From contig JBEKHW010000002.1 of NCBI GenBank assembly GCA_050012075.1, positions 47,518-111,517 on the forward strand: DNA of 64,000 nt, read 5' to 3'. The position numbers were made by a program, and so were the translations under genes. Origin of the DNA: Candidatus Omnitrophota bacterium (GTDB taxonomy: Bacteria > Omnitrophota > Gorgyraeia > Gygaellales > Profunditerraquicolaceae). Each line of letters opens with the position of its first letter. Positions within the stretch are counted from its first letter, which is position 1. The notes beneath the pieces were generated by a model that had not been told where the DNA came from, did no database searches, and saw only the letters and a list, made by a program, of their open reading frames with translations. Shown here in pieces: positions 18,560-18,716 of this stretch.

Positions 18560-18588
18560 TTGACCTCGGTGCTATCGGACTATATAAT
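18560..18588 (+). promoter_or_regulatory. sigma70-like promoter upstream of rplU
   Basis: TTGACC, a 17-nt spacer, then TATAAT. Confidence 0.4.
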
Positions 18589-18644
18589 AATAGGTTACTT
18601 GTAGCCAAAAATGAAGCAGGGTGCCAGGAGTAGTGCTGAACTAT

Positions 18645-18703
18645 GCTCCGCACATAGTGCGGAGCTAAATAAACAATATACGCCAAAGGCATTGTTTATT
18701 TAA
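18645..18703 (+). promoter_or_regulatory. conserved double-hairpin leader element (family B, copy 1)
   Basis: GCTCCGCAC-ATA-GTGCGGAGC hairpin, then AAATAAACAATA...TATTGTTTATTT hairpin, then AAAGGAGGG RBS. The copy at 28633-28690 shows compensatory changes. Confidence 0.4.
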
Positions 18704-18716
18704 AGGAGGGTAACAA

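Follow-up and report, generated by a model that had tools for sequence, protein, structure and literature searches.

The pair of hairpins found upstream of both rplU and rmlA in the window, a stretch of 64,000 nt from a metagenome-assembled genome (MAG) of Candidatus Omnitrophota, represents, with a probability that we put at roughly 60%, two copies of a dispersed and insertionally mobile repeat of approximately 58 nt, which is specific to one lineage and has been selectively retained. Rather than being a regulator that is specific to rplU and rmlA, the repeat was recently inserted before the ribosome binding sites (RBSs) of several unrelated genes in one Omnitrophota bacterium, and it has so far been seen in one Candidatus Omnitrophota lineage only. 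In our best reading it is similar in kind to the REP/REPIN elements, yet is not a member of that group. A first-pass annotation of the same DNA had interpreted the two regions as a promoter-linked leader shared by rplU and rmlA. Its observations, namely the hairpins, their covariation and their proximity to the Shine-Dalgarno (SD) sequence, were borne out, while the leader reading was not, and the annotation as a whole is therefore supported only in part. The main points of interest are the insertion of the repeat next to SD sequences and into itself, the inversion of one of its loops in place, and its strong conservation once inserted.

Two double-hairpin modules in the window

The genes concerned encode RNase G, L21, Obg, ProB, ProA and NadD, followed by TyrS, RmlA, an RmlD-like protein and RmlB. 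One module of approximately 58 nt is located at positions 18645-18702 upstream of rplU and the other at 28632-28689 upstream of rmlA, and each abuts the SD region, as read directly from the sequence. Both consist of a first hairpin (HP1), which has a 9-bp GC-rich stem and an ATA loop, and a second hairpin (HP2), which follows without a linker and has a 12-bp stem and a 13-nt loop; in the family as a whole, the HP2 stem has 11-12 bp and the 13-nt loop (AWACRCCARAGGY) carries at its tip a mini-stem of the form RCC-NNN-GGY. In copy 1, the stem and loop of HP1 (18645-18665, plus strand) read GCTCCGCAC-ATA-GTGCGGAGC, of which the loop, CATAG, contains a TAG stop codon, and HP2 (18666-18702, plus strand) reads TAAATAAACAAT-ATACGCCAAAGGC-ATTGTTTATTTA, with an A/U-rich stem of 12 bp and a 13-nt loop (ATACGCCAAAGGC) whose apical mini-stem is GCC-AAA-GGC. 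HP1 of copy 2 (28632-28652, plus strand), which reads GTTCCGCGC-ATA-GCGCGGAGT, has nine pairs, two of them G-U, around the ATA loop, and HP2 of this copy (28653-28689, plus strand) reads AAAATAAACGAT-ACCTCTGGTGTAT-ATCGTTTATTTT and has a 12-bp stem. The 13-nt loop of the latter (28665-28677, ACCTCTGGTGTAT) is flipped, as it matches the family consensus ATACACCAGAGGT exactly when read as its reverse complement. The covariance model (R1) scored copy 1 at 81.7 bits and copy 2 at 74.8 bits, and it scored HP2 of copy 2 at 38.5 bits on the minus strand because the loop is flipped.

The two hairpins before each RBS, which end 0-3 nt 5' of the SD, are thus real, and chance as their origin is excluded by the pattern statistics and by the existence of nine related copies. 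The HP1 pattern CCGCRCATAGYGCGG has two exact matches in 64 kb, where 0.23 would be expected at up to two mismatches, and both HP2 arms are marked by AAATAAACRATA and its complement. Folding of both modules into an adjacent pair of hairpins is much stronger than that of shuffled controls, both for RNA (z-scores of -6.1 and -3.6 for 80-nt folds of the two copies) and for DNA on either strand (z-scores of -8 to -9 for 58-nt folds). The compensatory transitions that had been reported in both stems were confirmed by pairwise alignment, in which A-U pairs of one copy stand against G-C pairs of the other in HP1 and in HP2. An assembly artefact can be excluded for the rplU copy, since L001 (ENA) and L002 (Logan), two more assemblies made independently for this strain, have exactly the same sequence.

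A covariance model built from a 7-copy alignment was run over the window, the 10 kb that precede it and approximately 140 kb from relatives, and it detected no further copy. A weak match at 35779-35828, which is antisense and inside an open reading frame (ORF), was rejected, and the CCAAAGG at 51139 is not part of a hairpin. CATAG was also dropped as an enriched intergenic word, since its complement is enriched too and the stop-codon and ATG content accounts for the enrichment. The sequence proposed as a weaker relative between proA and nadD (22345-22353, GCATAGCGC, plus strand) gave no R1 match at E ≤ 10 and forms a 3-bp stem only. The gap between these two genes (22293-22380) measures 88 nt in the window compared with 14 nt in the relative L004, and it contains CATAG and CATAA words and no module recognized by the covariance model. 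A ribosomal-protein leader, which had been suggested for an Rfam scan, was not found: the whole window gave no Rfam match at gathering score, and at E ≤ 10 the surroundings of both copies matched only unrelated families with 12-22 bits and E ≥ 0.07.

Promoters and flanking sequences

Promoter-like sites are present upstream of both modules, as the first-pass annotation had stated. The promoter scan detected TTGACC-17-TATAAT at 18560-18588 (plus strand) for rplU, outside the repeat, and TTGCAA-16-TATAAT with a TG extension at 28588-28615 for rmlA. The further claim that the promoter and the two hairpins form a unit did not hold, however, as three of the five module loci are promoter-less and lie between co-directional genes, and as the similarity between the rplU and rmlA upstream regions starts at HP1, the promoters and the sequences from promoter to HP1 being unlike in the alignment. 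At rplU, the promoter and the SD are conserved in four genomes while the hairpins are found in one lineage only; for instance, CCTTGACC-17-TATAAT is kept in the alignment with L004, L005 and L008, all of which are without the hairpins. The rplU and rmlA promoters were shown to be independent of the repeat.

The module upstream of rplU is adjoined by the ancestral SD of this gene (AAGGAGGG, with spacer and ATG at 18703-18719, plus strand), which is mostly unpaired in the prediction; the GGAGG is located at 18705-18709 and the ATG at 18717, and the SD region (AAGGAGGGTGACAAATG) is kept in relatives without the module. The rplU leader is further extended in this lineage only by approximately 50 nt (18592-18644, plus strand), for which there is no counterpart in L004, L005 and L008. 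This segment has a weak covariance-model match on the minus strand (14 bits) and holds TGCCAGGAG, which resembles the HP2 loop, and it may be a decayed older module. In the case of rmlA, the tyrS-rmlA intergenic segment at 28485-28631 (plus strand), which is also specific to this lineage and within which the promoter-like site is located, is unlike the rplU upstream region. It is followed, after the module, by an SD-like AAAGGGAGAG with spacer and ATG (28690-28708, plus strand; SD-like sequence at 28690-28699, ATG at 28706), and the SD region from GAGCAAGGTATG on resembles TAGCAGGTGATATG of L004.

With regard to the downstream genes, obg follows rplU directly (19031-19035) without an intervening rpmA (L27), as is also the case in L004, L005 and L008; the usual arrangement is a pairing of rplU and rpmA. 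The rmlA gene heads a same-strand run of approximately 29 kb (28706-57777) with sugar-nucleotide, glycosyltransferase, Wzy-like and NeuB-like genes, which constitutes a surface-polysaccharide cluster. The gene after tyrS is a different one (Polysacc_synt) in the relatives L005 and L008.

Copies beyond the window

A metagenome scan with CATAGNGCGGAGNNAAATAAAC identified three more module loci in one JGI sample, which are queC|queE (L010), serC-like|serA (L012) and one other (L011). The sample is probably the same MAG as the window, because the accessions of the window L21 (MGD0335642.1) and of the QueE of the JGI sample (MGD0337135.1) are close together. At L011, a canonical module is located between two co-directional genes, the upstream ORF ending at the TAG in the HP1 loop, and precedes an ORF of 76 amino acids. 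The queC|queE locus contains two modules in tandem, A and then B, and module A has wholly different stems (CACCGAG/CTCGGTG and GATTTTGGCAT/ATGCCAAAATC) with the same loops. The canonical module between the serC-like aminotransferase gene and serA is interrupted at the apex of its HP2 loop by a second, nested module, which consists of TCCTGCGC-AGG-GCGCAGGA and GATTTCAACGT-AAACGCCAGAGGC-ACGTTGAAATC.

The known total, including copies in close relatives, is nine copies at six intergenic sites and none in coding sequence, so that the motif is found in intergenic regions other than the two described at first. All modules have the same strand as the genes, and AAG or AAAGG follows their ends at a distance of 0-3 nt. 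A regulatory leader common to rplU and rmlA is not what these positions suggest, as the module also precedes queE, serA and the 76-amino-acid ORF. Other collections did not add to the family: viral contigs gave no match, phage and plasmid collections searched by BLAST gave only a 22-nt chance match, a metagenome match (L009) reached only 8 bits with the covariance model and was discarded as chance, and a search of genome contigs with the combined HP1 and HP2 pattern returned one non-palindromic chance match in an Angelobacter MAG coding sequence.

Empty, single and double sites in close relatives

Relatives at the rplU locus share 87% (L004), 74% (L005-L007) and 73% (L008) identity in L21, and all of these have retained both the promoter-like CCTTGACC-17-TATAAT and AAGGAGGGTGACAAATG. 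In the alignment, the approximately 110 nt that hold the rplU hairpins are present only in the window genome and not in L004, L005 and L008, and the tyrS|rmlA gap is 17 nt long in L004 compared with 221 nt in the window. The serC-like|serA site was found in three states: a 17-nt gap without a module in L015 (85% relative), one un-nested module in L016 (95% identity), and the L016-type module plus a nested module of 57 nt in L012. The relatives at 85-87% protein identity are thus without the module at all three comparable sites (rplU, rmlA and serA), which again speaks against a regulatory leader of rplU and rmlA. At queC|queE, module A is the only module in a 95.5% relative (L017), where AAAAGGGAG comes next, and L010 has module A followed by AA, module B and AAAGGGGAGG. 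In addition, an assembly in ENA (ERZ1426817) has a near-identical L21 (same 90% cluster) located 261 nt after RNase G, compared with 175 nt in the window, a difference that could point to one more insertion within this strain's rplU leader.

The two new insertions, at queC|queE and at serC-like|serA, fall within an A-run before GG (AA^AGG) and add at most one A. These comparisons showed that the insertion point of a copy is the A-run that directly precedes the GG of an SD or SD-like motif, and that a new copy can be placed next to a resident one, giving a tandem pair, or can be nested in the apical loop of a resident HP2, which is itself SD-like. The order on the sense strand of the neighbouring genes is HP1 and then HP2 in all seven inferred insertions. 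The left flanks (CTAT, TATA, GATT, TCAA, TGAA, TAAA and CCAA) are A/T-rich and not fixed, and the right flank is always AAG or AAAGG. No target-site duplication is consistent across the sites, with at most one extra A in the filled/empty pairs L017/L010, L016/L012 and L015/L016. Terminal inverted repeats are also absent, the module ends GCTCCGC... and ...GTTTATTTT not being mutually inverted.

The same comparisons showed that the HP2 loop inverts in place. L017 has AAACACCAAAGGT as the loop of module A, whereas L010, in which the stems are the same, has the reverse complement (of AAACACCAGAGGT). A flipped loop is found in two of the nine copies, and the rmlA copy in the window has the same kind of flip as module A; HP1 is never flipped.

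Predicted effects on translation and transcription

In the predicted folds, both hairpins pair within themselves, and the mean probability of being unpaired in the SD region was 0.64 and 0.78 for the window copies, which is no lower than in relatives without the module. Occlusion of the RBS, and with it the suggestion that HP2 modulates ribosome access, is therefore unsupported. An SD-sequestering riboregulator, such as a thermometer or a translational attenuator, does not fit either, since the SD is not paired in the dominant predicted fold. CsrA-type binding to a GGA in the loop together with the SD was considered and rejected, as the loop has AGG followed by U or C rather than GGA and its flip is tolerated. 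The C-terminal approximately 25 residues of the rpsA (S1) product (ORF at 25713-27302) have a weak partial match to the Pfam CsrA family (30 bits, no single stretch of which passes alone).

An intrinsic terminator or attenuator between genes, which we regard, like chance similarity, as highly improbable, would be in line with the stable GC-rich hairpin of HP1, and the terminator scan did flag HP1 of copy 2, although on the minus strand only. There was no plus-strand call at either copy. The sequence that follows HP1 on the gene strand (AGUAAAAUAAAC) is A-rich and has no U-tract, and the base of HP2 is A/U-only with its U-run paired within the stem. With two compact hairpins and no U-tract, termination of transcription is therefore not expected. 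The repeat would be co-transcribed with the flanking genes, and in the mRNA it would close all three reading frames, the stop codons that can be read from the sequence being a TAG within the HP1 loop and two TAA, of which one is at the junction and one at the 3' end. Since the SD is left single-stranded, the repeat may be a tolerated, and probably useful, structural spacer or stabilizer located between the upstream sequence and the RBS, a role that would be harmless or useful to the host.

Covariation and conservation of inserted copies

The nine modules were aligned with N pads to hold the register, and the outer loop of L012 was edited to take out the nested insert. Standard pairs were found in 98.9% of the stem cells, compared with 35-46% when the 3' partners were slid. 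Covariation, which had been put forward on the two window copies, was strong once more copies were added: 14 of the 21 pairs changed on both sides and none of 500 shuffles reached the observed covariation score, although these counts are inflated because the two variant subfamilies were picked by eye as hairpins beside canonical copies. The tip of the HP2 loop co-varies as well (GCC...GGC versus ACC...GGU). On the sense strand, G-U occurs in eight stem cells and A-C in one only.

Once inserted, copies were shown to change much more slowly than neutral sites. Module A has no differences in 54 non-loop positions between L010 and L017, compared with 16 differences in 80 fourfold-degenerate sites of queE (20%; P ~6e-6), and the serA module has approximately four differences in 58 positions between L012 and L016, two of them uncompensated stem changes, compared with 22.8% at fourfold sites (P ~1e-3). 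As these differences are far below the level at fourfold sites, the copies are not decaying neutrally. Gene conversion between copies or recent recombination from strain to strain could be an alternative source of this conservation. Such strong conservation after insertion is unlike a purely selfish, decaying element, and it fits a host-functional RNA equally well.

An alternative explanation is that the module is a cis-regulatory RNA motif, in which the hairpins or the HP2 loop bind a protein, a small RNA or a component of the ribosome and thereby set the translation or stability of a dispersed regulon, new members of which would be recruited through duplication of the motif. The purifying constraint, the covariation, the loops that are conserved across three stem subfamilies, the G-U pairs on the sense strand only, the invariable sense orientation next to the SD, and the SD-like ARAGG in the loop, which stands 18-22 nt 5' of the real SD, would all be expected of such a motif. 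Nevertheless, we consider it unlikely, because the downstream genes (those for L21, RmlA, QueE, SerA and the 76-amino-acid protein) are functionally unrelated, the orthologous sites of the 85-87% relatives do without it, tandem and nested copies occur, the SD is not occluded and Rfam offers no match. Furthermore, a sequence-specific RNA site would be destroyed by the reverse complementation of the loop and by its flipping in place.

Proposed mobility of the repeat

Under the mobile-repeat reading, the element either is directed to the A-run before an SD or persists nowhere else. It would most likely be mobilized through a single-stranded hairpin intermediate by a trans-acting enzyme that is encoded elsewhere in the genome; the hairpins, the absence of a target duplication and the single orientation would fit single-strand transposition of the Y1/HUH type. 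No transposase-like Pfam match, and no RAYT, was found among the ORFs of 74 kb (the 64-kb window and the 10 kb upstream). GC skew is positive across the whole window and nearly all genes are on the plus strand, and for this reason the orientation of the repeat relative to transcription is inseparable from its orientation relative to replication.

Mobility requires some recognition at the DNA level, and it is conceivable, though less so than a regulatory RNA, that the module functions as DNA throughout, with extruded hairpins or a cruciform, or the 13-bp HP2 spacer as a double-stranded site, being recognized by a recombinase, a transposase or a nucleoid protein and the RNA fold being incidental. 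The conservation of the loop in either orientation is what a double-stranded or cruciform site would permit, and both DNA strands fold equally well. However, the constant orientation of HP1, the wobble pairs on one strand only, the order of HP1 and HP2 that is fixed relative to the genes and the position tied to the SD are difficult to reconcile with this explanation, and to our knowledge an invertible segment of 13 bp is shorter than any that known invertases can handle. The same applies to an operator for a dimeric regulator, which the first-pass annotation had offered as an alternative: the half-sites co-vary symmetrically, they are wholly changed between subfamilies, and the promoter is missing at three of the five loci.

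A more far-reaching version of the mobile-repeat reading, to which we give little credence, is that the repeat belongs to a new class of self-propagating elements that home to SD-like AAGG, with the HP2 loop as a mimic of AAGG and with inversion of the loop as a switch of downstream translation. If this were true, the mimicry would explain the nesting, and the loop would alternate between mimicry of the SD (ARAGG) and of the anti-SD (CCUCU), which would provide a heritable and reversible translation switch for the downstream gene.

Whatever the mechanism, the loci offer clean before/after snapshots between close relatives, including an empty site, a single copy, tandem and nested copies and a loop flipped in place. 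With a target at the RBS and clear constraint after insertion, the repeat is therefore a good test case of the way in which a compact genome copes with, and perhaps makes use of, mobile RNA-structure modules within its operons. For annotation, such hairpins should not be called gene-specific leaders or operators.

Other small repeats

Several other small repeats were observed during this work. The heptamer CATAGTT forms tandem arrays directly 5' of start codons, upstream of fmt in the window (59665-59690, 3.7 copies) and upstream of queF in L010 (469-502, minus strand of the locus, 4.9 copies); queE and queF overlap without a gap in the ~95% relative L017, and the array is therefore also lineage-specific. 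A 39-nt intergenic repeat, GGKGKGYTAATTCACAGACGCTKATAGACAA..., occurs with 82% identity upstream of rpsA (25613-25651) and upstream of a GalT-like gene (60696-60734), and it may be another shared family of leader or promoter regions. The 73% relative L008 has a palindrome of its own, GGGACAGTCCCC-TTC-GGGGACAGTCCC, between proB and proA (12333-12361) and, as the exact reverse complement, between proA and nadD (13674-13702). Different Omnitrophota lineages seem to carry different small intercistronic palindromic repeats.

Comparison with known systems

The best-known small non-autonomous repeats are those of Proteobacteria, Firmicutes and cyanobacteria. We know of none that has been described for Omnitrophota, and a full-text literature search returned no report of one.

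The Rfam L21_leader is also a structured 5' untranslated region before rplU. The module differs from it in having no Rfam match, in being absent before rplU in close relatives and in being present before unrelated genes. Integron attC sites have the core RYYYAAC ... GTTRRRY at the base of an imperfect hairpin and are located 3' of cassette genes; the module was rejected as such a site, since the HP2 arms AAATAAAC and GTTTATTT misfit the core consensus and the flanking genes are housekeeping genes. The terminal inverted repeats and target-site duplication by which a MITE is recognized are both lacking in the module. Mycobacterial interspersed repetitive units (MIRUs) are direct tandem repeats of 46-100 bp with small overlapping ORFs and not hairpin modules. 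The likeness to them lies in the intercistronic location within operons, in the one orientation relative to transcription and in the stop signals that keep the flanking ORFs intact.

In single-strand transposition of the IS200/IS605 type, hairpin ends are recognized, no target duplication is made and the process is strand-specific; the active strand is on the lagging-strand template, and insertion takes place 3' of a fixed target of 4-5 nt on one strand. The hairpins and the lack of a target duplication of the repeat fit these elements and their miniature derivatives. The repeat would also have the strand specificity in common with them, its strand being the sense strand of leading-strand genes, in a region of positive GC skew. 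In contrast, it has no fixed tetra- or pentanucleotide on its left flank, which is only A/T-rich, its two hairpins are unlike each other, and no TnpA gene was seen in the 74 kb. Insertion of one small repeat inside another at a hairpin loop also has precedents. IS1397 and ISKpn1 insert into REP loops, and very small nested dispersed repeats of cyanobacteria were reportedly described by Elhai et al. in 2008. The sequences and hosts are other ones in these cases, and the target here is SD-like (AA^AGG).

Tiny intergenic elements with two hairpins are found in organelles as well, as the double-hairpin elements (DHEs) of Allomyces mitochondrial DNA (Paquin, Laforest & Lang 2000, cited in PMC7218506) and the repetitive hairpin-forming elements of sponge mitochondria (PMC2800124). 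Their mobility is likewise inferred from optional presence between close relatives. DHEs are organellar and eukaryotic and have no sequence relation to the repeat described here. We are not aware of any description of DHEs that target sites next to an SD, nest in a loop of their own kind or have an inverted loop. The CATAGTT arrays for their part bring to mind the TAACTGA heptamers that are arrayed between genes in Beggiatoaceae and cyanobacteria (PMC4679880).

A close comparison is that with the REP/REPIN elements, which are mobilized by RAYT transposases (Bertels & Rainey 2011, PMC3116915; PMC3337134). A REPIN is an inverted doublet of one REP and forms one long hairpin, whereas the module has two different hairpins side by side; it contains no inverted doublet, the sequences of HP1 and HP2 being unrelated and each self-complementary. 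Furthermore, the module has no 5' GTAG head, its orientation relative to the genes is fixed and its position is tied to the SD. The cognate RAYT gene of REP elements, which encodes a Y1 transposase, is usually flanked by REPs, and none was found among the ORFs of the 74 kb. The repeat agrees with REP/REPIN elements in several respects: these too are short, palindromic, extragenic and non-autonomous, are spread within a single lineage, occur inside operons, persist under selection and are predicted to fold into hairpins as single-stranded DNA or mRNA.
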